From Rhodothermia bacterium (lineage in GTDB: Bacteria > Bacteroidota > Rhodothermia > Rhodothermales > UBA10348), in the NCBI GenBank assembly GCA_036985715.1, contig BTQE01000005.1:1-55521 (forward strand): a stretch of 55,521 nucleotides of DNA, written 5' to 3'. Within the stretch, counting starts at the first letter, position 1; every line of letters begins with the position of its first letter. The notes beneath the pieces are model-generated. The model did no database searches. It was given only the letters and a program-made list of their open reading frames with translations, and had not been told where the DNA came from. The position numbers were made by a program, and so were the translations under genes. This document shows positions 1 through 37,211 of this stretch, one piece after another.

Positions 1-279
1 GATGCCTTCGAAAAGGTATGGGAGGAGATTGAAGGTTGGCTTGATGATACTCCGTATCTGGCAACAACGACTGTTCTTGAGCGCCTTCAGGCTGCATATC
101 CAGGGCGGTATCAAAACAACAAACTTCGCACACTTCAGCGCCGTGTAAAAGCCTGGAGGCTCAGCCAAATTGAGAAGCCCGAACACGAGTTCAGCACGGG
201 AGATTCTCTCCCTGATGCAGACACGATTGAACTCGTTGTACATTGTGAAAGCCGTACTGGAAATGAGAGCCTCTGGTAA
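1..279 (+). CDS. C-terminal part of a DDE transposase (ISNCY/IS21-like C-terminal HTH region); 5' part lies outside the window
   Basis: Frame 1 is open from base 1 to TAA at 277-279: DAFEKVWEEIEGWLDDTP...LERLQAAYPGRY...LRTLQRRVKAWR, a motif typical of these transposases. Absent from the ORF track because it has no start codon. Confidence 0.8.
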   Translation, partial: DAFEKVWEEIEGWLDDTPYLATTTVLERLQAAYPGRYQNNKLRTLQRRVKAWRLSQIEKPEHEFSTGDSLPDADTIELVVHCESRTGNESLW

Positions 280-298
280 CATTTTAAACGAGGCAATG
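1..298 (+). mobile_element. Right end of an IS inserted into IS3 orfB
   Basis: The transposase stop is followed by a terminal-IR-like ggtaacattttaaacgaggcaa (275-296). IS3 orfB similarity on the minus strand stops abruptly at about 299. Confidence 0.7.
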
Positions 299-455
299 CG
301 CGGTGCGGACGCTCGACGTAGAGCTCGTCGAGGGCCCGCATGACGGAGAGGTTCTCTTCGCTCTCGCCTTTCGGCCGGTAGTATGCCGTCGAGCGGTTCA
401 GCGCGAGCAGCCGGCACTGCTTCGTCACAGGCAATCTGTTTTTACGGTCGATCAT
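299..455 (-). pseudogene. IS3 orfB transposase N-terminus, interrupted
   Basis: MIDRKNRLPVTKQCRLLALNRSTAYYRP...ENLSVMRALDELYVERP is a typical IS3 OrfB start. Residues after ERPHR are read from the antisense strand of the invading IS. Confidence 0.85.
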
Positions 456-469
456 TTGGCGGCGCTCAT

Positions 470-757
470 CTAACTGACGCGACCGAGCGCCTTCGATAAA
501 AAATCCTTCTCCATCGCCAACTCACCGATCTTGGCGTGGAGCTCTTTGATCTGAGCTTCCTGATCTCTCGGACCGGAACCGCCCGTCTCGAAGACATCCT
601 CGGCACTCGACAGAAGCTGCTTCTTCCAGGCGCTGATTTGATTCGGATGTACTTCGAACTGCTTGGCTAGCTCAGCCAGCGTGCGATCTCCTTTGATCGC
701 TGCCCGGGCCACCTTTGCCCTGAATGCAGAGCTGTGATTGCGTCTCTTGCGACTCAT
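470..757 (-). CDS. IS3-family transposase OrfA (HTH)
   Basis: MSRKRRNHSSAFRAKVA...TLAELAKQFEVHPNQISAWKKQLL...LHAKIGELAMEKDFL; SD-like aggagg upstream. Confidence 0.92.
   Translation of the reverse strand: MSRKRRNHSSAFRAKVARAAIKGDRTLAELAKQFEVHPNQISAWKKQLLSSAEDVFETGGSGPRDQEAQIKELHAKIGELAMEKDFLSKALGRVS
497..503 (-). promoter_or_regulatory. -1 programmed ribosomal frameshift heptamer T-TTT-TTA
   Basis: AAG GAT TTT TTA near the end of orfA. The -1 frame reads IEGARSRQLDERRQ without a stop directly into orfB MIDRK. Confidence 0.75.
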
Positions 758-6644: not shown

Positions 6645-7271
6645 ATGACAACGACCAGAGCAACGTCATCCGGTTCCTCCGCATTCGATCCGGATCTAAA
6701 GAAGGCCCAGATCGCGGAAGCCGCCATCAGGGTGTTCGCAGAGAGTGGCTTGGCGAAGGCCAAAATGATCGAAATAGCCCGTGAGGCAAATGTCGGCAAG
6801 GGAACCATATACGAGTACTTCCGGAGCAAGGATGAGCTGGTTAAATATGCAGTCACTCTGTTTCTTCAAACCCTTAATCAGCAGTTGGATAGCGAATTGG
6901 AGAGGGAAGACGATCCGATGAAGAAACTTGAAGTGATTATCCACACGACACTGGAATCGTTCTGGAAAGTGGGTCACGAAGGGCGCTTCATGATTGACAT
7001 CTGGGCGGATGGTGTTCGCTCAGGAGTAGACTATTTCGATACGCCGGCGATGTATGCCCAGTACCGCGCTCTAATTGGTGCAGTTCTGGACGAAGGAACA
7101 AGGAGGGGAATGTTCCGGAAAACAGATTCACTCATCACCGCTTCTCTCATTATCAGCCTTCTCGACGGAATGATTCTGCAATGGGCGCTGGACCCCGAAG
7201 CGTTGGTGTATAGTGATGCGGAGAAAGGCTTGTTGGAACTCTTAGAACTCGGATTGGCTCCAAATGATTGA
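6645..7271 (+). CDS. TetR/AcrR-family transcriptional regulator
   Basis: IAEAAIRVFAESG...MIEIAREANVGKGTIYEYFRSKDEL HTH. Confidence 0.95.
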   Translation: MTTTRATSSGSSAFDPDLKKAQIAEAAIRVFAESGLAKAKMIEIAREANVGKGTIYEYFRSKDELVKYAVTLFLQTLNQQLDSELEREDDPMKKLEVIIHTTLESFWKVGHEGRFMIDIWADGVRSGVDYFDTPAMYAQYRALIGAVLDEGTRRGMFRKTDSLITASLIISLLDGMILQWALDPEALVYSDAEKGLLELLELGLAPND

Positions 7272-7307
7272 ATCCTGAGCTATGAAAGCTTATTTCATCA
7301 ACCGCTA

Positions 7308-7325
7308 TGACCGACCGGTCGGTCA
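7308..7325. promoter_or_regulatory. TetR operator 2
   Basis: Perfect 18-bp palindrome TGACCGACCGGTCGGTCA, 21 bp upstream of the MMPL start. Confidence 0.88.
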
Positions 7326-7346
7326 CTTAAAAAAACGTACGACACT

Positions 7347-10300: not shown

Positions 10301-10832
10301 GATAGTATACACGGGACCTGCCCGTGTTCGGGGTGATAAAATTTTGATGCTGAATGACGGGGACGATATCTGGTTTTATACGCCAAAAACAGACCGCGTT
10401 CGACATCTGGCCTCGCACGCGAGACGGCAGAAAGTGCAAGGAAGCGATTTCTCCTATGAGGATTTGAGTACGGGAAAATTCGAGGAAGACTATACTCACA
10501 CGCTCCTGGGACAGGTTGAAATGGATGGAGTCGACTACTACAAAATTGAAGCAATTCCAGATGAGTCCGGTCCCTCGTATTCTAAAATAATCGTGTGGGT
10601 GGAGACCACTCGATACGTTGTACGCAGAATCGATTACTACGACGACGGGGCGCTTCTCAAACGCCTGACGAACAGCGATATTCGAGAATTGGAAGGGCAT
10701 ATTCTGCCTTTCAAAATGCTCATGGAAAACCTTCGGGACGGATCACGTACGGAATTCGAATTTAGCGAGATGACCCTGAATATCGAGTTGGAGGACCAGC
10801 TTTTTACGACCGAAAACCTGAAAAGGCGGTAG
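7347..10832 (+). CDS. MMPL/RND-family transporter fused to a C-terminal LolA-like (outer-membrane lipoprotein-sorting) domain
   Basis: Two RND repeats with GLGIDYNIH and GIGIDDAVH motifs. After about aa 930 comes a LolA-like domain (SLIVYTGPARVRG...WFYTPKTDRVR...GSDFSYEDL...LFTTENLKR). Confidence 0.9.
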   Translation: MRDRFFTTLASWAEHHTWLMLGLTLLVTVLTAAIAGGLELNMQFKSLMPQSHPTVQEYDFIVNNYSSATNIIVAVKGDENSIKSFADDLVPKLRAMTEYVSRVDYKINREFMGRHGFMLSKARDLDNSRNLFSDLRLVPFLTRLNDSFEQTYIADDEGISNGEKEDKAVRALDGIENWLQTMTLYLDGDGDVEAAREAVDRMLIGDPYFISQDKDILLLFAQPTFTLNEVDKLMMAMNAIDSQIEELVSKYPNIDAGTTGLMALSRDEFNALSSDLYVTTLIAFILIIGLFIVSFRMWAAPLLAGISLIVGLIWASGFIAVTVGSLNMMTSMFAVILVGLGIDYNIHVISGYTEFRAEGHSIYDALRMALVKTGNGIVIGAVSTALAFLTMLISENQGMKEFAVVVGGGVLFTMIASLLVLPPLLVARDRIRVRRKGEPRSLRSISYGRVGNLAEWLAARPIQVLATLFVVTVLMAYSAFTISFDYNYLNLEPVGLKSIELQDEIIDEFDITPDILLVTAASVEEARSISDQAKELKSVGLVMSISDYVPSSEQHERRLPYIRKIRSDLANGTTLPAMTEDDVDLLLNELYRMEDNVIELAQLAFAGGQDKVDRKAERIVGDLEQTAAERSGLFRPLVERLDSDRSSGAARLAAFERDYEPFLRTAALGMTSEEIITLPDLPASIRNQFVSNDGRQFLLSIYPRQQVWDLEFLGRLTKQMHRIDPRVTGMPPIFFVLVEYIAKDGRRAALLTMVLVFLLLWIDFRSINSAVAAMLSLAVGAIWMVGLMNVFGMKFNLLNVIGIPLILGIGIDDAVHILNRYRVEGRGRINVVYASTGKAIILTSITTMLAFGSLTFATYRGLGSLGLTLAIGVGTALLTSLLMLPALLGLLEKYTRYGIQSTDRPRKKGAAIIAIVFLFPILMWSNTVRAQVPTVDVLDIIRRVDANERTESSRIIGKQIITTSSGRKRTLEIESYAKGGNEKSLIVYTGPARVRGDKILMLNDGDDIWFYTPKTDRVRHLASHARRQKVQGSDFSYEDLSTGKFEEDYTHTLLGQVEMDGVDYYKIEAIPDESGPSYSKIIVWVETTRYVVRRIDYYDDGALLKRLTNSDIRELEGHILPFKMLMENLRDGSRTEFEFSEMTLNIELEDQLFTTENLKRR

Positions 10833-10833
10833 A

Positions 10834-12042
10834 GTGACCACCACGGCTACATCCAGCGTGCGGAGTGTCTCTGTTCTCGTTCTTCTGACTCTGGTGCTGG
10901 CGAGCATCAGTCAGGCCCAGGAAATCGAATACGGAGGCTACGTCGAGCATCAGATCTTTCCGCAGGAGCTACGCGGGCGGCTGGTCGTCATGGATTACAG
11001 CAAGGCACGACTCGATCTCTATTCTCAGCTCACGGAGCAGATCAGCGTTACGGGTGACTACATCTTTCGGATTCAACATGGACAGAAGAATTTCAACAGT
11101 CTGGATTTCGTGCCCGATCGGGTCGTGGAAACCTACGCTTTGAGTATCAACACGACGACGGAATCACTCCGAGAGGCGTTCCTCTATCGGCTCAAAGACG
11201 AGAACTATATTGATAATGCATTCGCATCCTTTTATTCGAATTGGGTGAATGTACGGGCCGGGCGGCAACAGATTCCCAGAGGCGCCGGCTACGCCTGGAA
11301 TCCGACGGACATCTTTCACGACAAGAATCAACTCGATCCTACCTACGAAAAACGTGGCGTCGACGCGATAAAGGCGGAAATACCCCTGACTGGCATGAGT
11401 GCGATATCGGGCGTCGTCGGCGTCGGTAACGGGTGGGACGAAGCGACGAAGTCCCTGCAGTTTCGATCGTACGCAAAGGGTTTCGACTTCTCGTTTTCCA
11501 TCATGGAGAAGTACGAGACGAAGTATGACTTCAACAGGCTTTCTACCGGTACCGAGCGTCGTCGACTGCTAGGCGCCGATGCGTCGGGGACGATAAAGGG
11601 GATCGGAGTATGGTTCGAAGGAGCATACAGCGATCCCGAAACCTCCATTTCCTACAGTCAGCTTCTCTTCGGAGCAGATTACACGTTCGAATCCGGGCTT
11701 TATTTGATCACTGAGTATTACCGAAACGGGAAGGGCACTTCGGAGAAAACGGAATACAATCTCCAGCGGTGGATGGATTTTCTCGGCTCTGCCGGGGAGA
11801 ATCTGGGTCAAAATCTTCTGTTTGTCGGACAGACCTATCCGCTTACGGATCTGCTTACAGGTTCCAATTTTACGATAGTAAACGTCGACGACGGCAGCGC
11901 GGTCGTCTACCCGTACTTCGAATTCAGCCTGAGTAATAATGCCGTGCTTACCCTCATCGGCTACGTAACGATCGGAAAGAGCGAGACAGAGTTTGGAGCA
12001 TTCGGCTCTGGGGCGATTGTTCGGGGACGGCTATATTTCTGA
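10834..12042 (+). CDS. Putative outer-membrane beta-barrel protein of the MMPL/LolA operon
   Basis: Signal peptide (SQA-Q), RAGRQQI..G..WNPTD...GVDA motif, C-terminal RGRLYF. Starts 1 nt after the upstream stop. Confidence 0.75.
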   Translation: MTTTATSSVRSVSVLVLLTLVLASISQAQEIEYGGYVEHQIFPQELRGRLVVMDYSKARLDLYSQLTEQISVTGDYIFRIQHGQKNFNSLDFVPDRVVETYALSINTTTESLREAFLYRLKDENYIDNAFASFYSNWVNVRAGRQQIPRGAGYAWNPTDIFHDKNQLDPTYEKRGVDAIKAEIPLTGMSAISGVVGVGNGWDEATKSLQFRSYAKGFDFSFSIMEKYETKYDFNRLSTGTERRRLLGADASGTIKGIGVWFEGAYSDPETSISYSQLLFGADYTFESGLYLITEYYRNGKGTSEKTEYNLQRWMDFLGSAGENLGQNLLFVGQTYPLTDLLTGSNFTIVNVDDGSAVVYPYFEFSLSNNAVLTLIGYVTIGKSETEFGAFGSGAIVRGRLYF

Positions 12043-12068
12043 ATCGGCTACAGTTCGTTCCGGCGCGT

Positions 12069-14417
12069 TCAACCTGCCGGCTGAACAATCGGAATCCGTT
12101 CGCCTCGCTTCCCGAATTCAAACTCTTTTGGTGGATCCACTCCTATCAGATACTGGACAAAGTAGTCCCATCTGCGGCGCATCCAGTATTGACCCAGTCC
12201 GTGTCCACTGTTGGGGAAGATCAAGAGGTCAAAATCCTTGTTGGCATCAATGAGCGCTTTGACCAGCAGGAGCGTGTTGTTTACAGGCACGTTGCTGTCG
12301 AGTGAGCCGTGACCGAGCAGGAGTTTTCCCTTCAGGTTCTCCGCGAGCAGATAATTCGCCTGGTTGTCGTACGTGGTCGTGCCGTCTTCATTTCGGAGAA
12401 GTAGGCCCTGCCATTTCTCTCCCCAGTCATCTTCGTAGGTGGCATTGTCGTGGTTGCCCGAGCCTGAGACTGCCACTTTGTAGAAATCAGGATACCGAAG
12501 GATTCCCCCGGTTGAAGCAAATCCTCCTCCCGAATTTCCGTAAATCCCGACCCGACCCAAATCCATCCAGGAATTCTGCGCACCCAGCTGTTTGATGGCC
12601 TCGATCTGGTCCGGTAGTCCGTTGTCGCCCATATTGCCGTAGTAGGCGTCGTGGAATAACTTGGAACGCCCCGGTGTACCCATGGCGTCGACTTCTACGA
12701 CAATGAATCCGAGTTCGGCGACCGCCTGTTTATCACTACGTGATGGAGAGAAGCTGCGGCTTCCAACGCTGCCCGATTGCGGACCCGGGTAGAGGGGATT
12801 GAGGACCGGATACTTCTTGTCGGGATCAAATTGGGTGGGTTTGTACATCAGGCCATAAATATTCGTCACACCGTCTCGGGCTTTCGTGGTGATTTGAACG
12901 GGCGGCTGCCATCCAGAGGCGATCAACTGAGAAATGTCCGCTTTCTCGAGCGTCATCACAAGATTTCCATCGATATCACGAAGCACGGTCACTGGTGGGT
13001 CGACAGGGGTCGAATAGCTGTCAACGAAATGACTGTAATCTGGGGAGAAGTTGACCACGTGGTTCGCGTCCTCGGGTGTCAAAAGCGTGAGATCGGAACC
13101 GTCCAGGTTGACACTATAGTAGCGTATATAGTAGGGATCTCCGGATTCTCTGCCGCCGGCAGTTAAATAGATTTTCCGATTTTCCCGATCGACATAGCGA
13201 ACCTGCTGGACGGCCCATTCGCCTTCTGTAATTCTGTTCTTGATCTTTCCCGTATTCACGTCATATAAGTACAAGTGTCCCCAGTTGTCGCGCTCGGAAA
13301 ACCAGATCACTTCATCGGTGGCGGACAGATAATGCCAGTTCGAGAAGCCGTCACCTGACTCGAAATAGGTGTCTTGCACCTCCTCCATTATGTCTCGAAC
13401 ATCACCTGTTTCAGGGTCCGCAATGCGGAGTTTCGCTTCTTTGTGGTCACGAGAGCTGGAAACAAAGGCGAGCTGGTTCGAATCCTGGCTCCATCTTACG
13501 TCGAGAAACTCGCCCCCACGGCCAGCTATGTGATCCGTCGTCGTGCTTCGATGCGGATCGGGCGGCATGTTCAGTCGAACCGTGCGGGCACCGTCGAGAT
13601 AAATCACTACTCGGCTGATACGAAAGATCAGACTATCTCCCGGCAGGGGATATTTCCACTGTGATAGTTCCGGGTGGCCGGATTTCGTGGAGACCATATA
13701 CATCTCACCGACTCCACGTGCGTCGTGTTGGAACGTGGCAATCTTCTTGGAGTCCGGTGACCAGAGAACAACGGGTCCTGGGCCCTTCGTCCATCCTGCA
13801 TTGTTCGTGGCATAGCCGAAATCTTCTATGCCATCAAATGTGAGCTGCGTTTCGTCCTCGGTTTCAACGTCTCGTACCCAGAGATTGTAGTCGCGGATAA
13901 ATGCGGCTAACTTTCCGTCTGGTGACAGCACCCGCGTCCTATTTCGTCGGAATCGGGCAAACGGAGAATCCTGCTCGGGGGCACTTATCTCGTTTTCTTC
14001 CCAAAAACACTCGTAGTTCTGAAGGCTACACGTATAGCTTCGGCCGGGGATATCGAACGCAATTGAGTAACCATCATCCGTGTAATCAAAAGACGTAAAT
14101 GGAAGTTCAAGCGCTCCGTATGGGGTTTCATCGGACGAGAGGGCTTCAGCAAGACGATCATGGTCGAAGGCTCTGGCCCTAGTCCCGGTTGAGGGATTAA
14201 CAAGCACGAACTCCGTGCCTTCCGCGGTTGTATTCCGGTACCACATTCGCCCATCGTCGAGCCAGTTCGGGCTGATGGAGGCTTTGAAAACCAGGGGCTG
14301 CGTATAATTACCGAGAAAACCCTCGGCACGCTCGTAGTCTTCGCGGGTTACCGACTCTTGTGCAAGTGTCGGCGCCACCAAAATAAGGACGGCTAATACA
14401 GCCACGGGATAACGCAT
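12069..14417 (-). CDS. S9B dipeptidyl-peptidase IV family peptidase (secreted)
   Basis: Signal peptide, beta-propeller region, YPGP, nucleophile GNSGGG, D(SNV) and GH triad motifs. Confidence 0.92.
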   Translation of the reverse strand: MRYPVAVLAVLILVAPTLAQESVTREDYERAEGFLGNYTQPLVFKASISPNWLDDGRMWYRNTTAEGTEFVLVNPSTGTRARAFDHDRLAEALSSDETPYGALELPFTSFDYTDDGYSIAFDIPGRSYTCSLQNYECFWEENEISAPEQDSPFARFRRNRTRVLSPDGKLAAFIRDYNLWVRDVETEDETQLTFDGIEDFGYATNNAGWTKGPGPVVLWSPDSKKIATFQHDARGVGEMYMVSTKSGHPELSQWKYPLPGDSLIFRISRVVIYLDGARTVRLNMPPDPHRSTTTDHIAGRGGEFLDVRWSQDSNQLAFVSSSRDHKEAKLRIADPETGDVRDIMEEVQDTYFESGDGFSNWHYLSATDEVIWFSERDNWGHLYLYDVNTGKIKNRITEGEWAVQQVRYVDRENRKIYLTAGGRESGDPYYIRYYSVNLDGSDLTLLTPEDANHVVNFSPDYSHFVDSYSTPVDPPVTVLRDIDGNLVMTLEKADISQLIASGWQPPVQITTKARDGVTNIYGLMYKPTQFDPDKKYPVLNPLYPGPQSGSVGSRSFSPSRSDKQAVAELGFIVVEVDAMGTPGRSKLFHDAYYGNMGDNGLPDQIEAIKQLGAQNSWMDLGRVGIYGNSGGGFASTGGILRYPDFYKVAVSGSGNHDNATYEDDWGEKWQGLLLRNEDGTTTYDNQANYLLAENLKGKLLLGHGSLDSNVPVNNTLLLVKALIDANKDFDLLIFPNSGHGLGQYWMRRRWDYFVQYLIGVDPPKEFEFGKRGERIPIVQPAG

Positions 14418-24852: not shown

Positions 24853-27800
24853 AAAAGTCCCACGCCGATAATGATCGTGGTCTCCTCCTCGGAGAAATTG
24901 ATCGTTGCGGTGAATACGGAGAGATTGTACAGATTGGCCCAAAATCCGACTCCATAGCCCTGGTGCCATACCGACGAATTTTCTCCATCGGTCCACACGC
25001 GACCGTTGTCTACGAATGCAAGGGCTCCGGCTGAGCCCACGGCCAACAGCGTTGAGTATCGAAAAGTTGTGTTCGAATCTCGAAGCTCTGATAAAACGCA
25101 GTTCGGCCGGCAAAGCGAGTGCTGCGCCAGCCTCTCAGATTATTTCTCCCACCGAGTGTACTTGATCTGTAAAATGGAAATTCTCCGATATTGTGACGAA
25201 CACCCACTCTGGCAGCGAAGGTGTGCTGTGTCAGCGAGACCGGAGTCAGGTACAAGGAGAAATCGGACGATATCTCAGTGAAATCGGGCGTTGACTCATG
25301 CAAACCAAATCTGAGATGCAGCCGGTTTTCCCAGAAAAATCCCTGTCTCGGAAAGACCGCAGAGTCGCGAACATCAACCTTGATTCCCGATTCAAATCCG
25401 AGAAAGGATTCGTCTCCGAACGATGTCGGAGCGATACCCGCCTGTGGAAGACCCACAAACCGAAGCGAGTCTTTCTTGATATCGGTGCCCTCCAATCTTG
25501 GCCCGACATAGAATTCCAGAAACCCACCCACAGGCTTAATAAATCGAATCCCAACCACGGTCTCAGAAAATCGGGCTTGATAAAATCTGGCATCCTTAGC
25601 AGTATTGGGACTTTCGTTTCCGAGTCCATAATAGTTGCGGATATTATTGGGCGTCCGAATGGAGGCTTCAACACCAATATCCCAGCCATTCAAGCGATTG
25701 GTAAAGCGCCCCTCATAGGCCACATTAAACGCCTGCGTTCTGGCAGCGAGATTGGCTCGAAAGGAGTGCCTGTTGTCGAACGGCGGGCGCCTGAAGCTGT
25801 AACGTGTGAACGTGGTACCGCCACCGATGAAGAGTCCATCATCCTGATTCCGACCGAAGAATAGAGACGGCATGAATTCCGGGTATCCGTACTCGCGGGG
25901 ATCATAGCGGTTAACCAGTGGATCATCAGACACTTGCACGGAGATGGCCGGCCCCAGTTGAATCTGAGTCTCGAATGGCACATCGTAGACAACGAAGCTA
26001 TTCCTGCGGGCCAATGGGCCGGATTTATCTATGAATTGATCTGCGCCGGTCCCACCGATGGCTCGAATGCGAATGCCTCCTTTTGCATTTCCGCTTACGA
26101 TAAAAACATCATTCCCACCGAGTCCGTACAGTCGTACTTCCTTTGTTTCAGAACCGAGAAAGATTCTCCGAAAAAGCTCTTTTCGAATTTCTCCTTCCTT
26201 GGATGTCTTGTACATGACAACTTCAGTCCGATCGCCACTGAGCTTTTGAATCTCGAATCGCTCATGCTTATTGGATCCCACTACGTCCGGAAATCGACTG
26301 ATGATTTCATAGTACTCTTCGGCTGCATCTGGCAATTTTTCCCTCCGAACCCTGAGGAGGTGACGAAATTCGTCTGCATATAATTTCAGGATCGGTTCAG
26401 GAAAATCGCTTACAGCCGAATCGATGACTTCATCGGTGACTCGGTCTTGAATATCACGTGCAATTTCCAACCAGTCGCTCCTGGTGAGAGACGTCGTGAA
26501 CCTTCTATCCTGAGGTCGTCCGTTCCGGGTCAAGCCCCTGATATACCCGTAGCTCTCTCGAAAATCTTGATTCTTGGCGAGAACAAATCGAGATTTAGCA
26601 ATGCTTGGAAAAATTCCATTCATACGACTCATGGCCCAATCTCGATCTCGAGGGATCGCGCGATAGCGTTTTCCTTTGCTGCCCTCAGCAGGAAATTCAG
26701 CCCAGCGCCACTGATCTGAATGTCGATCCCAGTCGGAGATGTACATGTCAAAGAGGCGAGCTCGGGCGAAGAAACGCTCATCGACGCGATAATCATTGTC
26801 GCTCGCAATTTTTTTCGTCATAGACACGCTGCCGATAACTTTTTTGGATCTTCCAAATGTCGGCGCGTGAGACATGTCGTCGTCCGGTCGCTCCTCAAAC
26901 AGCATTATCTGGTCGGCAACCACATCCCTGAAAGGTCCAAAACGATCGTCTTTTGGGACAAGGAAGATCTTCGGATTGGTGTGGTAGACACCCGCACCAT
27001 GAGCAAGTTTAGGTACAACAATAGGTGCGTACGGGTGCAAGATGGCATACTGGTCAACCACAATATTAGCCGCGAGGGTCTCTTCCAGTCCCGGCGGCAA
27101 ACTTTTCGTAGGATCTTTTGATACGGATCGTAGAACAAATTGCTTTCCCTGCGAATCGCGCAACCGGAGGGAGGTGGTCTGAAGTCCGCCGCCCCTTTTA
27201 ATGGGTGTCAGGCCTCCAGACTCGCTGCCTATGTCAAACACTGGAAAGTCGACTTCAGCCGTCCAGGCTTTCCTGTTTTCAGAGCCGAAGAAGAAATTGT
27301 GGAGACCGCCAGCGGCAAGCGAAGGATTCGCGGCACGCCGAACGGTTGAATCCGGTGGGATCAACAGTTGCTGCTCGTCTTCAACGATGATGGGTTCGGT
27401 AACTACTTCGGGAGCGGGACCTTCGATCTGAGCATGATAAAGAAGACGTCCTTCCGGGGTGTTTTCGTCGCTTCCCCAAGCCTCAAGCCACATCTCACCG
27501 TTTGCATAAAATCGAATTCGGATGAAACCTTTTCCGCCGTACGTAAAACGAGCATTTCTACCTGCAGCTACATAGTCAGATTTTGATCCAGCTCCACTGA
27601 CGACATGATGGACATGATCCTCGTAGAAGTATTGCAGGTTGTGTTCATGTCCTGCTGCGTAGATCAATCTGGATTCATGGGTTTTGAAGATGGCGTCCAA
27701 AGCGCTTATCAAAGAGCGATATTTGGGGTGAGAAAAGTCTTGCGGTCCTCCCATGGCGCGCCGAAGAATAGGGTAGAGGGAGCCGATGATCGGTAGCGGC

Positions 27801-28603
27801 ACGTACCATCCATCCTTCAGGGCGGTAAGCGGAAACAAATGGTCCTTAATCGAGAAATGTCCACCGTGTCTACCGTTAGATCTAATGGGGTGGTGAGCGA
27901 CCACGACCAGGTCGTCTTTTCGACGCTTGGTTACGATTTCCTGAAGCTCTAGAATCAGATCGGCATCTTCTTTGATATCGGCTGAACCCGAATCCCCGTA
28001 CGGTTTCACGGCACCCGTCATCCACCACTCGGTATCGAGCACGATCAGATATAAATTATCTTCCAGTTTTACTTCAACGGGACCCGGTAATCCATTGTCT
28101 GGTAGAAACGCATTCCTGTTATTCAAGTATGATTCGACAAATTCTTCCTGTCGGTTGACGAGATCCACTCTTTTTGTTGAGCCCCTGCCCCAATCGTGAT
28201 TTCCCGGTACGAATACGACTCGACCTTTGTAATTCTTGACGGCATCCAACTGGGCACGCAGTCGCATCTCGGCGAATGCCCGGCTTGAAGATGAGGAATC
28301 GGGAAGGCCGCAACAGTACACGTTGTCACCAAGGAAGACGACGGTACCGTTAGAGTCGGCTTCCTGTGTCATCCGTTGAAGCAATCGCAGCGTCGGCTCG
28401 GATGAGGAAGAGGCGGACCCTCCTGCATCACCGATGAGATATACCTCGTGCTTCAGCTCTTCAATCGAAGGAGGTGCAGCGGGTAGGCTCGTCCGATCAA
28501 ATGGAGAGATATAGACAGACGACGCGGTGCATCCGGCCAGAATGAGCAGAACGATCGGCACAAGCTTGTAGCGATGCTTTCCAGCCGTGTAGAACCAGCT
28601 CAT
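24846..28603 (-). CDS. Lipoprotein with calcineurin-like metallophosphoesterase + kinase-like domain + Omp85/BamA-TamA barrel; 1-nt frameshift at about 25058-25065
   Basis: LAGC lipobox; GDAG, GDNVY, GNHDW and GHEH motifs; DWDRHSDQW; barrel motif LGGRNNLRGW. The true C-terminus (FVDNGRVW...IIGVGLFY) is in ORF 24846-25046 in another frame. Confidence 0.85.
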
Positions 28604-28607
28604 ACGA

Positions 28608-29498
28608 TCAAGGCCCTTTCTCTGAGATTTGTGGGGAATATTTCACCAGGACTGCTCGGCTGCCGGCGCCCTCCGAAGCAAGAATCAAGGATCCGTCTGG
28701 CATAAAAGCAATGCCTTCGGGCTGCCGTACAATACTCTTATTCAACTTTTGTACCGCCAGTATTTTGCCCGTCATATTCGTAACAATCAGCAGTCGATTC
28801 GGCGAAGATAACAGAAATAGATGGCCGCTTTCAGGATGCACTGCGATGGCTGATGGTTTGAATCGCGAATGCCGGATACGCTTGCCAGCGAAGGCGGCCG
28901 ACAAGCTATCACTTGAAAGTACAAAGAGAGGCTGCTCGCTTACACGCTTGGTGTGAACATCGAAGCTGTAGACGGCCCTGGAGCGGCGAATTTTCTTACC
29001 TGCGTAGTCCTTGCAAACAACAAACAGGGTGCCGGACCTCGGGTCGGACGCTAGTCCTTCAGAATTGCAACGTCTCGACAAACGTGTTCGGATACGCTCG
29101 GACTGTATTCGTTTGCCCCACGTTCTGCGATCGGAACTGAACGTGAACAGGTCCCCGTCGCTCCGGAGGACAAAGAGTTGGCTCCCGAGTAATTCAACGC
29201 CCTCAAAGTCTCCCCGCCCACCAAACTTTACTGAATCCACGATTTTTCCGGTTTCCACATTGAGCACGAATAAGGTTCCATTTTCATCCTGAACCGCGGC
29301 CACATGGATAGAATCCAGGGGCGCGAGTCCGGAGATTTCATCCAGTTCGTGAGGGAGTTTGAAGATGGCATCGGGCTTTTCCAGGCGAAACGGAATTATG
29401 TCGACACTCGAAAGACCAGTCGAGGCGTTGGCCAGGAATGAAAGTGAAACGAGAGACCGTATCAGAAAAAGAAACAGATGGTATCCAGGAATCAGCAT
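28608..29498 (-). CDS. SdiA-regulated/YjiK-like secreted beta-propeller (phytase-like)
   Basis: Signal peptide; LDEISGL, AVQDE, GDFEGV, NSEGLA, FKPSAIAVHP, QPEGIAF, ASEG repeats. Confidence 0.82.
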   Translation of the reverse strand: MLIPGYHLFLFLIRSLVSLSFLANASTGLSSVDIIPFRLEKPDAIFKLPHELDEISGLAPLDSIHVAAVQDENGTLFVLNVETGKIVDSVKFGGRGDFEGVELLGSQLFVLRSDGDLFTFSSDRRTWGKRIQSERIRTRLSRRCNSEGLASDPRSGTLFVVCKDYAGKKIRRSRAVYSFDVHTKRVSEQPLFVLSSDSLSAAFAGKRIRHSRFKPSAIAVHPESGHLFLLSSPNRLLIVTNMTGKILAVQKLNKSIVRQPEGIAFMPDGSLILASEGAGSRAVLVKYSPQISEKGP

Positions 29499-29665: not shown

Positions 29666-30451
29666 ATGGAGCCTAACGAGAAGTTGAATCGAGATCAGTC
29701 CGAGCCAGAAGCGGGTTCAAACGAGGAGTCAGAATCATCCGCTGCGGATGTGTCGAAGGATTCGACTGCTTTTTCGGCGGCATCCGACTCACTGGAATCG
29801 TCCGTTTCCACGAAGAAGCAGAAAAAGAAAAAAGACGGTCTCGGCACATCTCGGGGAATCGAAACCATATTCAGGACTTCTTATAGAGTCCACATGAATC
29901 TGAGTTCGCTAGCAGATGCCAAGGCAAATATCATGATCAGTATCAATGGGCTCATCATTTCTATCATAATCGCTGCGATTTCTCCAAAGATCGATACGAA
30001 CCCCTGGTTGCTTCTTCCCACGACCATTATGCTTTTGGGTTCACTGATTTCGATCGTCTACGCGGTTCGTGCGGCCAGGCCAAGAGTAAGCAGCCAAATA
30101 GTGTCACTCGACGATGCGGGAAGTAAGCGAACGAACATTCTCTTTTTCGGACACTTCACGAATATGACTGAAGATGAGTTCGTTTTAGGTATGTCCAATC
30201 TGCTCTCAGATCAGACCTCGCTTTATCAGAATATGATCAGGGACATATATGGTCTAGGTCAGGTTCTGAAACGAAAATTTTCGTTACTAAGAATTTCCTA
30301 TACCGTATTCATGGTAGGCCTGATCCTTGGCATTCTGGCGTTCATATCAACGTATACATGGATCGTTATTAGTCTCGGTCCGGAAGAGTTATCGTCGATT
30401 TTACCATCCGAAGGCCCAACACTTCTCGCTAGCATGGGATTCGCAATATGA
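29666..30451 (+). CDS. Pycsar-effector-like (DUF5706/PycTM) membrane protein without an HD domain
   Basis: RGIETIFRTSYRVH..LSSLADAKANIMISIN, two TMs, ARPR, NILFFGHF, LGQVLKRKFSLLRISY, then a third TM. Confidence 0.82.
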   Translation: MEPNEKLNRDQSEPEAGSNEESESSAADVSKDSTAFSAASDSLESSVSTKKQKKKKDGLGTSRGIETIFRTSYRVHMNLSSLADAKANIMISINGLIISIIIAAISPKIDTNPWLLLPTTIMLLGSLISIVYAVRAARPRVSSQIVSLDDAGSKRTNILFFGHFTNMTEDEFVLGMSNLLSDQTSLYQNMIRDIYGLGQVLKRKFSLLRISYTVFMVGLILGILAFISTYTWIVISLGPEELSSILPSEGPTLLASMGFAI

Positions 30452-30969
30452 AAACGGTCATCCTGCTTCGGCATGGAAAATCAGATTGGGATGCCGATTA
30501 CGTTGGCGATCACCGGAGGCCCCTCGCCGGGCGTGGACAGAAAGCTTCGATTAAAGTCGGTAAATTCCTTGCGAGAACGAACCAGTTGCCCGGACTCGTG
30601 CTCTGCTCAACGGCCTTGAGAACGCGGGAAACTCTGGAGTTGGCCATGGATGCAGGAGAATGGACGGATGTAGATGTCAAATACGACAATACTATCTACC
30701 ACGCAGGCTACGATCAGATGCTCAGGTGTTTGGCGGCTCTGCCGGATGAGGTGGATCGGGTCATGGTTGTAGGACACGAACCGACAGCCTCACTTCTGGC
30801 CGGTCAGTTGATCGGCGGCGCTTCTCTCAATTTTCCAACTGCGGCAGTCGCTCGAATTGATCTAAACCTCGAACATTGGAAAAGCTGTCGCTCGGGCGTA
30901 GGCACACTCATATGGCTCATTAGTCCGCGTCTCCTAAAGAAAGGGATCAAGATATCTAAGAAGATTTGA
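30448..30969 (+). CDS. sixA: SixA-like histidine phosphatase
   Basis: LLRHGKSDW...D..RPL..RG, STALRTRET, VGHEP, FPTA. ATGA-coupled to the effector gene. Confidence 0.9.
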   Translation: MKTVILLRHGKSDWDADYVGDHRRPLAGRGQKASIKVGKFLARTNQLPGLVLCSTALRTRETLELAMDAGEWTDVDVKYDNTIYHAGYDQMLRCLAALPDEVDRVMVVGHEPTASLLAGQLIGGASLNFPTAAVARIDLNLEHWKSCRSGVGTLIWLISPRLLKKGIKISKKI

Positions 30970-33394
30970 TTTCTTCCGATTGGAAAGAACTGGATTCCAT
31001 AACCAGTTCCATGTCTTCACGTTCTTTCAGGTCCAGATCTGCAACCGGTTTGTTTTCAGCGACCTTGACCCGAAGTGCTTTCAGTCCGTGAACTCCCTGA
31101 AGCTGTTCAAGCTGAAGGTATTCGACTCCGGCTTCAACATACCCGGCAGCCTGCAAGTAATCCAGAAATCGGACGTACTCGTCTGCCTCTGCCTCCTGGG
31201 AATAGACGATGGCGATCATCCCAGGCTGCGTTAGACGCTCATTGGTGCTGGCAATCCGTACTTTGTCAATTCGTTTTTTGACGATTTCATACCGGATATT
31301 GTAGGCGCCGTCTACGTCAAACTTCTTCTCATCAATTCGAAAGCGAATCGAAAGAGGAGCTGACTGGACAAGTACGAGATGGGCCGTTTCCAGTGGCACC
31401 TCCAAGTGCGGTTTGAGCTTATTCATTTCCCAAACGACTCCAGCCATCGAAGTGAGCTGCCAGAGTTTGAGGTTTTTCAAATCCAGCTCATCAAATTCTC
31501 CACTTTCCTGTAAGGCAGAGCCAGCATAGATATTATACTCGACTCCGTCTGTTTTATACTTTTCGAAGTAATGAGGTACCATTGCCTGAGCTTCTTCCTC
31601 TCGCTGATCCAGGAAACTTGAGATGGTGTCATTCACGGCGGTCACACTGTCTTCAAACGCTTTTCGCTTCTTATAGACAACCCCGAGTTTTTCATCCAGC
31701 GCCTCTCGGTAAACGTCAACCTTGTCAGCGACAGTCTGAGAATACGCTCGTAGCCGATCAAACAATGGCTCGACTTCAGTCTGAAGAAGTAGAATGAGTG
31801 CGCGTTCGTCACCCGCTCTCGTCCCGGCGACCAATTCCTCGATATGCCTGCTCAGTCGATACCCTATCTCGTCGAGAGAAGGTCTCGGTTTGGAAACGCT
31901 GGCTTCGATAATCACAGACAACGCTAAACCCAGTTGTTCTACGAGATCATCTCTAATGGCGGTACTACGAAGATCAGACGATCCACGTATGTCGGTCATC
32001 CCGTAAAGCGGGTGTACATTTTCAAAAACAATGCCCGCGACTTCTCCCTGTTCACTTGAATTCTCTGAGAGAAGACGCGAGAGCGCCGCTTCTCTAAACT
32101 TCCACTCGACGACCGGGTGGATGGCCGTATACTGTTTTTTAATAATGGCCTGGACGCGATCTTCCTGTTCCTCCAGACTCCGATTGACGGACGTGGACAG
32201 GAGAGAAGTTATTTCATGGAGTTGTCGTGATTGCATCGGACCAATGTCGCAGCAGTTCGTCGATGCAAGCTCAAGAACCCCTACCACGTCATCCTTATTG
32301 ATCAAAGAGGCGAGGTAAATATTGCGAAAGCCCAACTCTTGAAGACGTCGTTCAAACGCTGTGTTTTTTTCCCGTTTGTTCAGGTCTTCGACATAAATAT
32401 GCCCGCCTGATCGAATGACTTCAGCATAGTAGGACTCTTGCCAGTTCTCACATTTCGGCAAGTCGGATTGAAGAAGTAGACTTCGTCCAATCGCTCTGGC
32501 CCCCGACACGCTTCCACAGCGACAACGGTCCAAAGCTATGAGGCCCAGGCGTAAATCTGGCAGCGCGAGGAGTTCCCGGATATGAGACTGCAGTCGATTC
32601 AGGTTTTCGTCTCCCGACAACGCGTCTTTCAGAAGCAGTGCATTCTTGAGTCTTGAAAGAACCTCTTGCTGAGTCACGTTAATGGCAGTCATCACGACGA
32701 ATCCATGAAACTCGAAATGCTCGGGTGGCAAAATTTCCATCCACAATTCGAGATTCAACGGTTCTGCCAAGAGACGGCGACGGTCCTCTTCTGACAAGTC
32801 AGGAATCGAATTCGGCGTACTAATCGAGACGAATTCCGGGTCGATAATTATTTTGTAGTACTCATTCAGACCCGTTTCTACGTCGACGAGTTCGATCACA
32901 AAATCAATGGGTTGCTCGACCTTCAAATCGTAGATGGATGAAGCAATCTTGTGATACGCGTTCATGGTCTTTCCGCGCATCATCTCATCCACGCCTACCT
33001 TGGCGCCATGAATGTGAACATGGAGCAGAAATTTTTCGAGAATTCCCAACTCGTCGAACAGACTTGTCGAATAAAACGAGTGAACGGCGAACGGCACGAA
33101 GGCCGATGCAATAATATTGTCCTGAAGAGCCGGGGGAAAAACGGCGGTCATCATCAATTCAAGAAGCTCTGGATGCCGTCTCAGATCTTCGAGTGAAACC
33201 TGAGACGTTTTTAGCTCCGGAGCGTTTTCCAGTTGGGTTAACACCTCCATTGCGATTGCGGCGTTGGTCGTCGACTCGGATGAAGCGCGTTGCTCCCAGA
33301 AATCGATCAGCTTTTGCAGCGAGGCAAAGCGTCGAAATGGAAATAAATCATCGAATGCTTGTACGTCAGCCGTACCGCGTATTGGGGGTGTCAT
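30956..33394 (-). CDS. GAF-domain protein with a putative class III nucleotide-cyclase-like C-terminus
   Basis: GAF region (VEDL...GFRNIYLASL...VVGVLELAS), then YGMTDIRGSS, EKYKTDGVEY, KFDVDGAYNIR, PGMIAIVYSQ, LQGVHGLKALRV. The cyclase call is inference. Confidence 0.75.
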   Translation of the reverse strand: MTPPIRGTADVQAFDDLFPFRRFASLQKLIDFWEQRASSESTTNAAIAMEVLTQLENAPELKTSQVSLEDLRRHPELLELMMTAVFPPALQDNIIASAFVPFAVHSFYSTSLFDELGILEKFLLHVHIHGAKVGVDEMMRGKTMNAYHKIASSIYDLKVEQPIDFVIELVDVETGLNEYYKIIIDPEFVSISTPNSIPDLSEEDRRRLLAEPLNLELWMEILPPEHFEFHGFVVMTAINVTQQEVLSRLKNALLLKDALSGDENLNRLQSHIRELLALPDLRLGLIALDRCRCGSVSGARAIGRSLLLQSDLPKCENWQESYYAEVIRSGGHIYVEDLNKREKNTAFERRLQELGFRNIYLASLINKDDVVGVLELASTNCCDIGPMQSRQLHEITSLLSTSVNRSLEEQEDRVQAIIKKQYTAIHPVVEWKFREAALSRLLSENSSEQGEVAGIVFENVHPLYGMTDIRGSSDLRSTAIRDDLVEQLGLALSVIIEASVSKPRPSLDEIGYRLSRHIEELVAGTRAGDERALILLLQTEVEPLFDRLRAYSQTVADKVDVYREALDEKLGVVYKKRKAFEDSVTAVNDTISSFLDQREEEAQAMVPHYFEKYKTDGVEYNIYAGSALQESGEFDELDLKNLKLWQLTSMAGVVWEMNKLKPHLEVPLETAHLVLVQSAPLSIRFRIDEKKFDVDGAYNIRYEIVKKRIDKVRIASTNERLTQPGMIAIVYSQEAEADEYVRFLDYLQAAGYVEAGVEYLQLEQLQGVHGLKALRVKVAENKPVADLDLKEREDMELVMESSSFQSEEIKSS

Positions 33395-35125: not shown

Positions 35126-36532
35126 ATGACGCAAACACAATTAGCCATACCCGCCGCCCACGGAAGGCCTCTCCGGTCGATCTCGACGGTGATACTCGGT
35201 ACGGACGACACGCGACTCGAGAAAATCTCAGCGCTTATTCGAGATGTCTCGGAGAGCGTGCGTGTTTTTCAGGTGTTGGAAGCCGAAATCGAGTCCCTGG
35301 ATCTGGAATCTGTTGGGCTCATCCTACTTGCGGATGCTGCTGAAGAAACACTCGCCAAGTTGGACGAGATTTTGGACTATACGGATCGAACGGTTCTTAC
35401 GTTCGCCTGTTTACCGGTTTCTGAAGTCGATACAATTCAGGATAAACTGCTTGATCATGTCGACGATATCCTGCTACATCCTGAGGAGCTTGCACTCCGG
35501 CTGCCTTTTGTCGAGCAAAGACTCCACAAGCGAGAGGAATCGCAGCGTCAAAATCGAGCTATTCTCGAAACAATTGTGGATGGGATTCTCACTATAGATT
35601 CGAGAGGTATCATCAACACGTTTAATCCGTCGGCGGAGAAGATCTTTGGCTATTCAGCACACGAAGTCATCGGAAAAGCCGTCGCAATCCTGATGCCACA
35701 ACCATGGAGTTCAAAGCATCAGTCCTATATACAGGAATACGAACGAACCGGGCAGGCACGAATTATAGGAATTGGACGCGAGGTCGTTGGTCTTAGAAAG
35801 AATGGAGAACAGTTCCCAATGGATTTGGCAGTGAGTGAAGTAAACTCGGAAGGCCAAAAGTTCTATACGGGGGTAGTACGCGATATTACCGATCGTCGTC
35901 AGCTTGAGCACGAGATTTTGAGAATTACCGACCAAGAGAGAAGGCGCATTGGACAAGACCTTCACGACGGTTTGGGTCAAATGCTCACGGGAATCGGACT
36001 CATCGCAAGAAGTCTCGTCACCAGAATGGAGCAGGAAGGCTCCAGTCATATCGAGGAAATGCGTGAGGTGACTGAGCTGATGAAAGAAGCCGACCGTAAT
36101 GCCCGAACGATTGCCCGGGGACTCGTTCCGGTGGAGCTCGACGTTAATGGTCTGGAGCATGCGTTGAGGATGCTTGTTACCGATGTCGAACAGTTGTTTG
36201 GAAGCCGGTGTACGTTTCATCAATCGGGTACGGTACCCGTACTTGAGATGAGTGCAATGACAAATCTATATCGCATAGCACAGGAGTCGCTGAGTAATGC
36301 CATCAAACACGGCAATGCGGATAGTGTGCGGATCGAACTCCAATCGAAATCTGGGAAACTCACGTTGTCTATCATCGACGACGGAATTGGTTTTTCCGAA
36401 GACTTACCGAAAAATCAAGGAATGGGTATTCCGATCATGAACTATCGCGCCCGGGCCATAGGTGCAACATTGGAAATAGGAGCCAGCGGAACCAAAGGAA
36501 CGACGGTGACGTGTTCACTGCCCGTCGAATGA
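35126..36532 (+). CDS. PAS-domain sensor histidine kinase (HisKA_3) with a FixL-like PAS
   Basis: FNPSAEKIFGY...LMPQP...HQSYI...TGQARIIGIGREV; ERRRIGQDLHDGLGQ; QESLSNAIKH; DDGIGF. Confidence 0.93.
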   Translation: MTQTQLAIPAAHGRPLRSISTVILGTDDTRLEKISALIRDVSESVRVFQVLEAEIESLDLESVGLILLADAAEETLAKLDEILDYTDRTVLTFACLPVSEVDTIQDKLLDHVDDILLHPEELALRLPFVEQRLHKREESQRQNRAILETIVDGILTIDSRGIINTFNPSAEKIFGYSAHEVIGKAVAILMPQPWSSKHQSYIQEYERTGQARIIGIGREVVGLRKNGEQFPMDLAVSEVNSEGQKFYTGVVRDITDRRQLEHEILRITDQERRRIGQDLHDGLGQMLTGIGLIARSLVTRMEQEGSSHIEEMREVTELMKEADRNARTIARGLVPVELDVNGLEHALRMLVTDVEQLFGSRCTFHQSGTVPVLEMSAMTNLYRIAQESLSNAIKHGNADSVRIELQSKSGKLTLSIIDDGIGFSEDLPKNQGMGIPIMNYRARAIGATLEIGASGTKGTTVTCSLPVE

Positions 36533-36560
36533 ACCTGTTTGATAACCGAAAGCGCCTGAT

Positions 36561-37211
36561 ATGACACGCATTCTGGTCGTCGACGATCATCCACTCATGC
36601 GAAAGGGACTCATCATGTCTCTTTCTGACGATCCGGACGTTGAGGTTTGTGCGCAGGCCTCTAACGCAGAGGAGGCCATGAGCCTGGTTGAATTGGAAAG
36701 CCCCGACCTCGTAATCGTGGACATCTCACTTCCAGGGATGAGTGGTCTCGAGCTTATAAAGCAACTGCATGCGATACGCCCCGAACTCTATACGCTCGTG
36801 GTCTCCCGGCACGACGAATCCCTCTATGCCGAGCGTGCAATCCGAGCTGGAGCACGGGGGTATGTCATGAAACTCGAAGCCGGGAACGTGATGACAAAAG
36901 CTGTCCACCGCGTTCTCTCTGGCGGTATTTATGTCAGTGAGGAGATTAACGAAAAGCTCCTGATGGGTATGGCAGCCGGACACACCTTGTCGAGTCACTC
37001 GCCGCTGGATGTATTGAGCGATCGAGAATTGGAAGTGTTCGAGTTGACCGGTAAAGGGTCTGGCACTCGAGAAATATCGGAGCGCCTGCATCTATCCGTA
37101 AAGACCGTAGAATCCTATCGTGCTCGAATCAAGACAAAACTGAACCTTTCTACTACTTCCGAGCTGATGCAGCATGCCGTTCATTGGGTGGAGGGCGAAG
37201 GTGCCCGCTAA
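36561..37211 (+). CDS. NarL/LuxR-family response regulator
   Basis: VDDHPL, VDISLPGMSG, LSDRELEV...LSVKTVESYR. Confidence 0.95.
   Translation: MTRILVVDDHPLMRKGLIMSLSDDPDVEVCAQASNAEEAMSLVELESPDLVIVDISLPGMSGLELIKQLHAIRPELYTLVVSRHDESLYAERAIRAGARGYVMKLEAGNVMTKAVHRVLSGGIYVSEEINEKLLMGMAAGHTLSSHSPLDVLSDRELEVFELTGKGSGTREISERLHLSVKTVESYRARIKTKLNLSTTSELMQHAVHWVEGEGAR

Follow-up and report, generated by a model that had tools for sequence, protein, structure and literature searches.

Two described groups of systems bear on the locus considered here. In Pycsar, as outlined in the Introduction of PMC11224242, a class III-type cyclase makes cyclic CMP or cyclic UMP, activating PycTM. For the class III cyclases themselves, section 5.3 of PMC9223806 places the metal aspartates of the adenylyl cyclase V C1 domain at D396 and D440, 44 residues apart, and the transition-state arginine on helix alpha4, at Arg1029 of the cyclase II C2 domain. 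We have analysed a 55,521-nucleotide stretch of a Rhodothermia bacterium (contig BTQE01000005.1 of assembly GCA_036985715.1; the whole stretch is called the window here), and we are concerned with the gene at 30956..33394 on its minus strand, whose 812 amino acid (aa) product we give the working label GAF812. GAF812 lacks detectable sequence similarity to class III cyclases such as Cya2 of Synechocystis (2w01), CyaC of Spirulina (1wc1), and CyaB of Pseudomonas aeruginosa (3r5g), and its relationship to them is visible in predicted structure only. The models lead us to regard GAF812 as a real, so far unannotated, and divergent branch of the class III-like cyclases, whose activity we infer.

The full-length protein, modelled with AlphaFold2 from a 94-sequence alignment, has a mean predicted local distance difference test score (pLDDT) of 93.9 and a predicted template modelling score (pTM) of 0.82; a separate AlphaFold model of residues 430–812 has a pLDDT of 93.9 and a pTM of 0.88. 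The C-terminal model opens with strand 456–469, followed by helices 472–501, 505–523, 529–548, 553–565, and 576–605, continues through the hairpin 609–614/617–624, helix 636–663, and strands 670–675, 681–686, and 691–694, and ends with helix 700–711, strand 726–731, helix 734–749, the hairpin 758–762/772–778, and helix 784–811. The predicted domain has both the beta-alpha-beta-beta-alpha-beta palm and the beta7-alpha5-beta8 part of the cyclase-homology fold, and the models and structure searches thus agree with an initial annotation, made from the letters of the DNA, which had proposed a cyclase palm in this region.

A Foldseek search of the Protein Data Bank (PDB) with the C-terminal model gave 17 matches at E≤1e-3, and all of the matches listed are class III cyclases. 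The best is the Cya2 guanylyl cyclase (2w01_B; E 1.1e-5, template modelling (TM) score 0.56 by target), and others include the phytochrome-linked adenylate/guanylate cyclase 6fht, AC9, CyaC, soluble guanylate cyclase, Rv1625c, Rv1900c, CyaB, and a uridylate cyclase. The full-length model has 6fht as its top match (E 3.8e-8), and the ESM Atlas's own model of GAF812 aligns to PF00211 proteins with TM-scores of 0.42–0.44 over 200–216 residues. The structural alignment covers nearly the whole of the cyclase domains (163 of the 167 residues of 1ybt_A and 178 of the 183 of 3et6_B), with their beta7-alpha5-beta8 C-terminal part included, and the cyclase rows stand 3–4 Z units over unrelated helical rows; 6fht_B, 8jsz_B, and 7yzi_A align from residue 1 of the C-terminal model, so that the helix before beta1 is taken in. 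The palm core is also found in GGDEF diguanylate cyclases; no GGDEF entry is present among the Foldseek matches listed or in the 50 rows of a second structural alignment, although a relationship to them may still exist. It is almost certain, to the extent that predicted models can be trusted, that residues ~455–781 adopt the class III cyclase-homology fold. The same annotation had called for a comparison with PycC as well as with ordinary cyclases; the class III fold is matched, but PycC is structurally no closer than ordinary adenylyl or guanylyl cyclases.

Translation of the open reading frame and the AlphaFold models divide GAF812 into an N-terminal domain, a GAF domain, linker helices, the cyclase-fold domain, and a C-terminal helix, with the first codon base of residue i lying at 33394-3(i-1) on the minus strand. 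The N-terminal alpha/beta region (residues 1–238, 32681..33394), defined by the secondary structure of the full-length model, is barely covered by the rows of the structure searches. The following segment (residues ~239–416, 32147..32680) has a GAF fold, and three GAF families of Pfam match residues 277–404, all below the cut-off (E 0.01–0.05). Linker helices (residues ~417–454, 32033..32146; helices 386–421 and 427–445 in the full-length model) lead from there to the catalytic-type domain, which with its insertion is predicted to span 31052..32032 and lies within the 3′ 44% of the open frame. The order of sensor, helix, and cyclase domain is that of 6fht. Global TM-scores against 6fht and against another sensor-helix-cyclase protein, soluble guanylate cyclase (6jt0), are nonetheless low (0.17), and the domains are therefore arranged differently in the models; neither a bilin nor a haem site is implied in GAF812.

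Five class III motifs had been proposed in GAF812, and all five are present in the order proposed. The segment YGMTDIRGSS is at residues 464–473 (32005..31976), its DIRGSS part at 31993..31976 exactly as first placed; EKYKTDGVEY is at residues 611–620 (31564..31535), with the D616 codon at 31549..31547, close to the earlier estimate of about 31545; KFDVDGAYN is at residues 691–699 (31324..31298, where 31298–31325 had been given); PGMIAIVYSQ is at residues 724–733; and the LKGKG-like motif LQGVHGLKALRV is at residues 765–776. A long helical insertion had also been postulated between the two aspartate motifs, and both AlphaFold models predict the 148-residue stretch between them to be all helical. 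The insertion itself, with approximate boundaries at residues 502 and 605 (31580..31891), comprises the four helices from 505–523 to 576–605 and lies between alpha1 and beta2. A loose regular expression for the ordered motifs matches 1 of the 2523 open frames of at least 200 aa in the genome and 0.0 in shuffled sequences, but it was composed after inspection of GAF812 and hence carries little weight. A further match in the genome, on contig C143, is an unrelated repeat-like protein and was set aside.

Conservation was assessed with 94 homologues clustered at 50% identity, and it is highest towards the C-terminus. Seventeen positions are invariant in all 94 (D468, S472, R476, D483, P607, D616, G617, Y623, G625, W645, V694, G696, R708, D710, K711, R720, and R775), and twelve of them (D468, S472, R476, D483, D616, G617, G696, R708, D710, K711, R720, and R775) are kept in all 22 further homologues drawn from other classes and phyla; a 23rd, L124, is not counted, because its open frame had been wrongly assigned. 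R476, D483, W645, R708, D710, K711, and R720 are invariants specific to this family, setting it apart from class III cyclases, as does its one fixed domain architecture.

The two aspartates that would be expected to bind metal occupy the topological places of the class III metal aspartates, one closing beta1 and the other in the turn between beta2 and beta3, and from this shared topology they would be juxtaposed in space. In the model, D468 closes strand 456–469 and opens the turn D468-I-R-G-S472-S473 (31976..31996) before helix 472–501, a candidate first metal aspartate and phosphate-binding turn. This turn conforms to the pattern D-[IV]-x-G-[FS]-[TS], which we take to be the class III signature and which is also visible in 34 aligned cyclase domains; position 469 is isoleucine in 78 of the 94 homologues and valine in 15, position 471 is glycine in 41, asparagine in 23, and serine in 13, and S473 is found in 88. 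In the alignment with 1cs4_A (model 21..348, chain 377..565), D39 of the model, which is D468, falls within one residue of D396, assuming a gapless beta1 alignment. The candidate second metal aspartate lies in the motif E-K-Y-K-T-D616-G617 (31544..31564), where D616-G617 forms the predicted turn of the beta2-beta3 hairpin (T615 in 86/94). D468 and D616 are 148 residues apart, compared with the 44 given for cyclase V C1 in section 5.3 of PMC9223806, leaving approximately 104 extra residues, all helical in the models, between alpha1 and beta2.

The remaining motifs fall in the later part of the domain, on elements to which we presume the canonical motifs belong. F-D-V-D-G696-A-Y-N699-I-R701-Y-E703-I-x-K-K-R708-I-D710-K711 (31262..31321) comprises a short strand and helix alpha4, and its portion up to N699 leads into the helix where the 34 aligned cyclase domains have W-G-D-x-V-N-x-A-S-R; N699, at the start of helix 700–711, is found in 87 of the 94 homologues, with aspartate in seven. 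P-G-x-I-A-I-V-Y-S forms strand beta7. The last hairpin carries L-Q-G767-V-x-G770-L-K-A-L-R775 (31070..31102), in which G767 (90/94), G770 (93/94), and R775 (94/94) are conserved, presumably at the place of the K-G-K-G loop of cyclases.

The family is large and has escaped annotation. A word-indexed search found 3989 proteins at E≤0.001 among 8000 candidates scored, and the 120 listed, of 649–869 aa, are named only "GAF domain-containing protein" or "hypothetical protein". An exhaustive comparison of the C-terminal 383 aa with representatives at 50% identity gave 1074 clusters at E≤1e-3 and 599 at E≤1e-30; among the 150 representatives listed, 137 have 737–877 aa with the match at the C-terminus, and the other thirteen, of 330–698 aa, may be fragments. 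A scan of one genome per species identified at least 600 stretches, at least 588 of them confirmed loci, in many phyla; the best 80 are in Rhodothermales, Gemmatimonadota, Ignavibacteria, Cytophagales (Pontibacter, Hymenobacter, Adhaeribacter, and Rufibacter), and Methylomirabilota/Rokubacteria, together with several Desulfobacterota, Gammaproteobacteria, Verrucomicrobiia, Eremiobacterota, Poribacteria, and Entotheonella. Some genomes have a second, divergent copy, as in a sister species (G001:C111:6165-8456, 38% identity) and in G028, G030, and G179, and in one genome of the order (G048:C1:3519663-3520736) the C-terminal domain is within a 1383-aa open frame, possibly a longer fused form. No source name and no model of the local copy of Pfam, NCBIfam, or PADLOC marks the cyclase-fold domain; NCBIfam and PADLOC have no match to GAF812 at all. 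The family PF27174 "YeeD" of Pfam 38.1 is assigned to 17–33% of the members of the family's Atlas clusters and to some homologues, and part of the region may already be named as this family of unknown function. A literature search that excluded subscription journals and supplementary files found no description of the family.

Within the window GAF812 is convergent with a 261-aa PycTM-like membrane protein (29666..30451, plus strand), which matches PF18967 above the cut-off (E 3.4e-29), the PADLOC PycTM model PDLC02364 (E 9.7e-22, positions 22–154 of 160), and also 2TM effector models of the cyclic oligonucleotide-based antiphage signalling system (CBASS). This association extends beyond a single genome. 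In 41 genomes of the order, both genes are present in 26, PycTM alone in two (one of them 87% complete), GAF812 alone in none, and neither in 13 (Fisher p 6e-9, uncorrected for kinship). At 20 loci of the order the two genes are no more than 2.5 kilobases (kb) apart in 14 and 8–14 kb apart in three, and synteny at these 20 loci extends over the entire region (Lnt, Maf, GATase ... Omp85). Among 301 sampled genomes of the phylum, 47 have the GAF812 C-terminal domain and 124 have PF18967, which is present in all 47 carriers and in 77 of the 254 non-carriers. In the three families with mixed states all seven carriers have PF18967, where 19 of 39 genomes are PycTM-positive overall (hypergeometric p 0.003). 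Of the 47 carriers, 25 have the GAF812 domain no more than 5 kb from PycTM and 32 no more than 15 kb; Hymenobacter and Nibribacter have the two genes, but far apart.

At 12 loci with the two domains near each other, taken from other Bacteroidota families and having G+C contents of 0.29–0.39 and differing outer flanks, a fusion of an HD domain with PycTM (386–423 aa) adjoins GAF812 in 11 and is convergent with it in eight of these, as in the window. A protein of 1223–1305 aa flanks HD-PycTM or GAF812 in nine of the 12, with a Metallophos domain in eight of the nine and an Omp85-type barrel (ShlB) in locus L163 only; at L161 the genes for HD-PycTM, an SdiA-regulated protein, Metallophos, GAF812, and Omp85 follow each other on one strand. 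The conserved theme seems to be a PycTM membrane module joined by a hydrolase, and the literature search mentioned above also found no description of an HD-PycTM or GAF pairing.

We note some further features of these loci. In many Bacteroidota PF18967 is the C-terminal part of a protein of ~390–420 aa with an N-terminal HD phosphohydrolase domain (L155–L166, for example L155:4347-5528 and L161:4625-5782, as well as L097:4396-5616 and L114:10131-11288). At L161 each half has its own gene, Metallophos at 6651-7727 and Omp85 at 10096-12663, and the GAF812 homologue lies in between. At Cyclobacteriaceae/Reichenbachiella loci the gene next upstream of the GAF812 homologue, oriented divergently, encodes polyphosphate kinase 1 (L083:5731-7821 and L097:5718-7811; L121 by position), and at L097 it is between HD-PycTM and GAF812. 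Loci of the Hymenobacteraceae type have a Macro-domain protein or a convergent PAP2 phosphatase downstream in place of PycTM (L070:10409-10939 and L088:10485-11012; L081, L102, and L117), these being enzymes that act on phosphate or nucleotide derivatives. A canonical PF00211 cyclase is one of the two upstream neighbours at four of 35 distant loci, three delta-proteobacterial and one of Eremiobacterota (L085:3867-7511, L089:6143-7702, L112:6125-7744, and L118:3509-6355). In one family of the same class (f26), 38 of 49 genomes have short PycTM genes (open frames of ~190–230 aa) and none of the 49 has GAF812; canonical class III cyclases are present in 50 of its 51 genomes with up to 12 matches each, the opposite of the window genome.

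The PycTM-like gene of the window is followed by that for a 173-aa SixA-like histidine phosphatase (30448..30969, plus strand), which matches Pfam His_Phos_1 (E 1.6e-8) and, below the cut-off, TIGR00249 sixA (E 6.3e-15). The phosphatase gene shares its first 4 nucleotides with the end of the PycTM gene and, at its own 3′ end, 14 nucleotides with the 3′ end of GAF812, and at 11 of the 20 loci of the order such a gene lies between PycTM and GAF812 or beside GAF812. The PycTM protein of the window has a disordered, Ser/Glu-rich N-terminus, the phosphatase after it being separate. On the other side of PycTM are genes for an SdiA-regulated-family protein of 296 aa (28608..29498, minus strand; PF06977, E 4.1e-12), which is syntenic and also found at L161, and for a 1197-aa metallophosphoesterase-Omp85 fusion (25010..28603, minus strand; Pfam Metallophos and Omp85) in a conserved neighbourhood, with a layout that recalls passenger-plus-Omp85 secretion proteins. 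Two genes upstream of GAF812, at 35126-37211 on the plus strand, are a histidine kinase (PAS/HisKA_3) and a response regulator of the LuxR type; in several genomes of the order this pair is the immediate neighbour of the GAF812 homologue (L029, L031, L032, L034, and L035).

How might such a protein work? We consider it likely, from the modelled fold and the conserved residues, that GAF812 has a catalytic function that uses a nucleoside triphosphate (NTP), and we lean, with less assurance, towards a sensor-coupled cyclase with a cyclic mononucleotide as its product. D468 and D616 would coordinate a pair of divalent metals; the triphosphate would be held by the S472/S473 turn together with the basic residues R476, R708, K711, R720, and R775, and the ribose by N699, such that the NTP would be converted to a cyclic nucleotide once the N-terminal/GAF sensor is occupied; the enzyme would most likely work as a dimer, as other class III enzymes do. 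In Bacteroidota and their relatives, the linkage of the genes suggests that the signal may act on, or be removed by, the adjacent PycTM-like membrane protein, and the outcome would be a chromosomal, housekeeping counterpart of the Pycsar cyclase-effector pair. We put forward a functional tie between GAF812 and the PycTM-like protein only tentatively, at a little under even chances. That the locus is chromosomal, conserved, and syntenic argues, if indirectly, for a part in housekeeping signalling and not in defence.

Comparison with Pycsar shows what is shared and what is not. The window has an effector of the PycTM family, but no PF00211 cyclase of the PycC type shares an operon with it; a search of the whole genome (94.87% complete) found no PF00211 domain, and GAF812 is convergent with the effector and SixA-like genes. 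Unlike the Pycsar cyclase, GAF812 has 812 aa with sensor domains and is not of the PF00211 family; its locus shows synteny throughout one order and turns up again in other classes, unlike a patchy defence island, and the PycTM partner carries, or precedes, a phosphohydrolase. Because no PF00211 domain was found in the genome, the need for a cyclase there can be counted in favour of the cyclase interpretation of GAF812.

A number of observations weigh against the interpretation given here, both of GAF812 as a cyclase and of PycTM as its partner. PF00211 does not match GAF812 at either E≤1 or E≤10, even with the two halves searched alone, and by the profile of that family GAF812 is not a member of PF00211; phmmer and the 94-sequence profile retrieve GAF domains and no cyclase from the PDB sequences; and hhalign of the family profile against the 34 class III cyclase domains, a narrow alignment with 30 of its sequences from one class, gives E values of 0.42 for the whole domain, 0.27 for the part before the insertion, and 0.35 for the part after it. 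That the domain would be hidden from standard profiles had been anticipated in the initial annotation, and Pfam, NCBIfam, the PDB sequence profile, and hhalign all miss it. In the putative active site, glutamate 703 (91/94) takes the place of the canonical arginine four residues after the catalytic asparagine, and no base-specifying residues can be named; R701 (91/94) and R708 (94/94) are candidates for the arginine's role. As to the partnership, the genes are convergent and not in a single operon, and their adjacency within the order may be inherited and proves little, because the whole neighbourhood is syntenic. Of ten GAF812-carrying genomes from other phyla, four gave no PF18967 match (a Rokubacteria, a gammaproteobacterial, and a verrucomicrobial genome, and the complete chromosome of a delta-proteobacterium); when the two genes to either side of GAF812 were scanned with Pfam at 35 of the best 80 loci, PycTM appeared at two; and tblastn with the window PycTM found it at only six of the best 80, a search that misses most HD-PycTM fusions, for which reason the counts above are from family profiles. 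From the phylum counts and these PycTM-negative genomes we conclude that the partnership is strong in the Bacteroidota-Rhodothermota-Gemmatimonadota group and is not obligatory elsewhere.

The failure of sequence comparison, and the fact that the structural evidence is all from predicted models, could be taken to mean that the motif resemblance is a matter of chance and that the domain is unrelated to nucleotide cyclases, with misleading models or matches. As letters alone the resemblance is indeed not significant, and it is the conservation and the predicted fold that raise the signal above chance. Two models from different inputs and the ESM Atlas model agree, as do two aligners, the cyclase domains are covered almost completely at Z-scores well above those of the unrelated helical rows, and motifs picked from letters alone land on the expected strands and turns, and we regard a chance resemblance as very improbable. 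An altered Asn/Arg pair, together with the conserved insertion and a neighbour of SixA type, would also suit two other kinds of protein. One is a pseudo-cyclase, in which a class III fold binds nucleotide and metal without cyclising and serves as a regulatory or ligand-binding module, comparable to the adenylyl cyclase-like ATP-binding protein of P. aeruginosa (6yii). The structural score of that protein is below those of true cyclases, and both candidate metal aspartates are invariant in the GAF812 family; we think a pseudo-cyclase unlikely. The other is a palm-domain nucleotidyltransferase of different chemistry, which would employ this two-metal site not for a 3′,5′-cyclic mononucleotide but to make a linear or cyclic di- or oligonucleotide or to transfer a nucleotide to some other acceptor, with the large conserved insertion shaping another acceptor site. 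Here the alignment of the whole domain, including beta7-alpha5-beta8, to the mononucleotide cyclases 1ybt_A and 3et6_B argues the other way, as does the linked hydrolase, which in most Bacteroidota is an HD domain; the HD superfamily includes cyclic-nucleotide phosphodiesterases. Such an enzyme seems to us slightly less likely still, and a sensor-coupled cyclase remains our preferred reading of GAF812.

This reading can be carried further into a broad and speculative scheme, which we think improbable as a whole. In the Bacteroidota-Rhodothermota-Gemmatimonadota group there could be a chromosomal, Pycsar-like axis in which a GAF-gated cyclase, so divergent that sequence profiles miss it and possibly with a cyclic pyrimidine nucleotide as product, gates a PycTM-like protein, a fused HD domain or adjacent SixA-like phosphatase ends the signal, and the output is tied to the surface metallophosphoesterase-Omp85; anti-phage Pycsar would then be a mobilised offshoot or sister of such a housekeeping module for envelope signalling.

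If active, the GAF812 family would be an uncounted class of second-messenger synthases, and in genomes such as that of the window, where PF00211 was not found, GAF812 would be the sole enzyme of the cyclase fold. The family would also provide an example of how a long insertion, together with divergence, can conceal a well-known catalytic fold from profiles. To our knowledge the PycTM family is known so far from abortive infection, and the recurrent pairing of GAF812 with phosphohydrolase-joined PycTM-like proteins offers a testable route to a role for PycTM outside defence.

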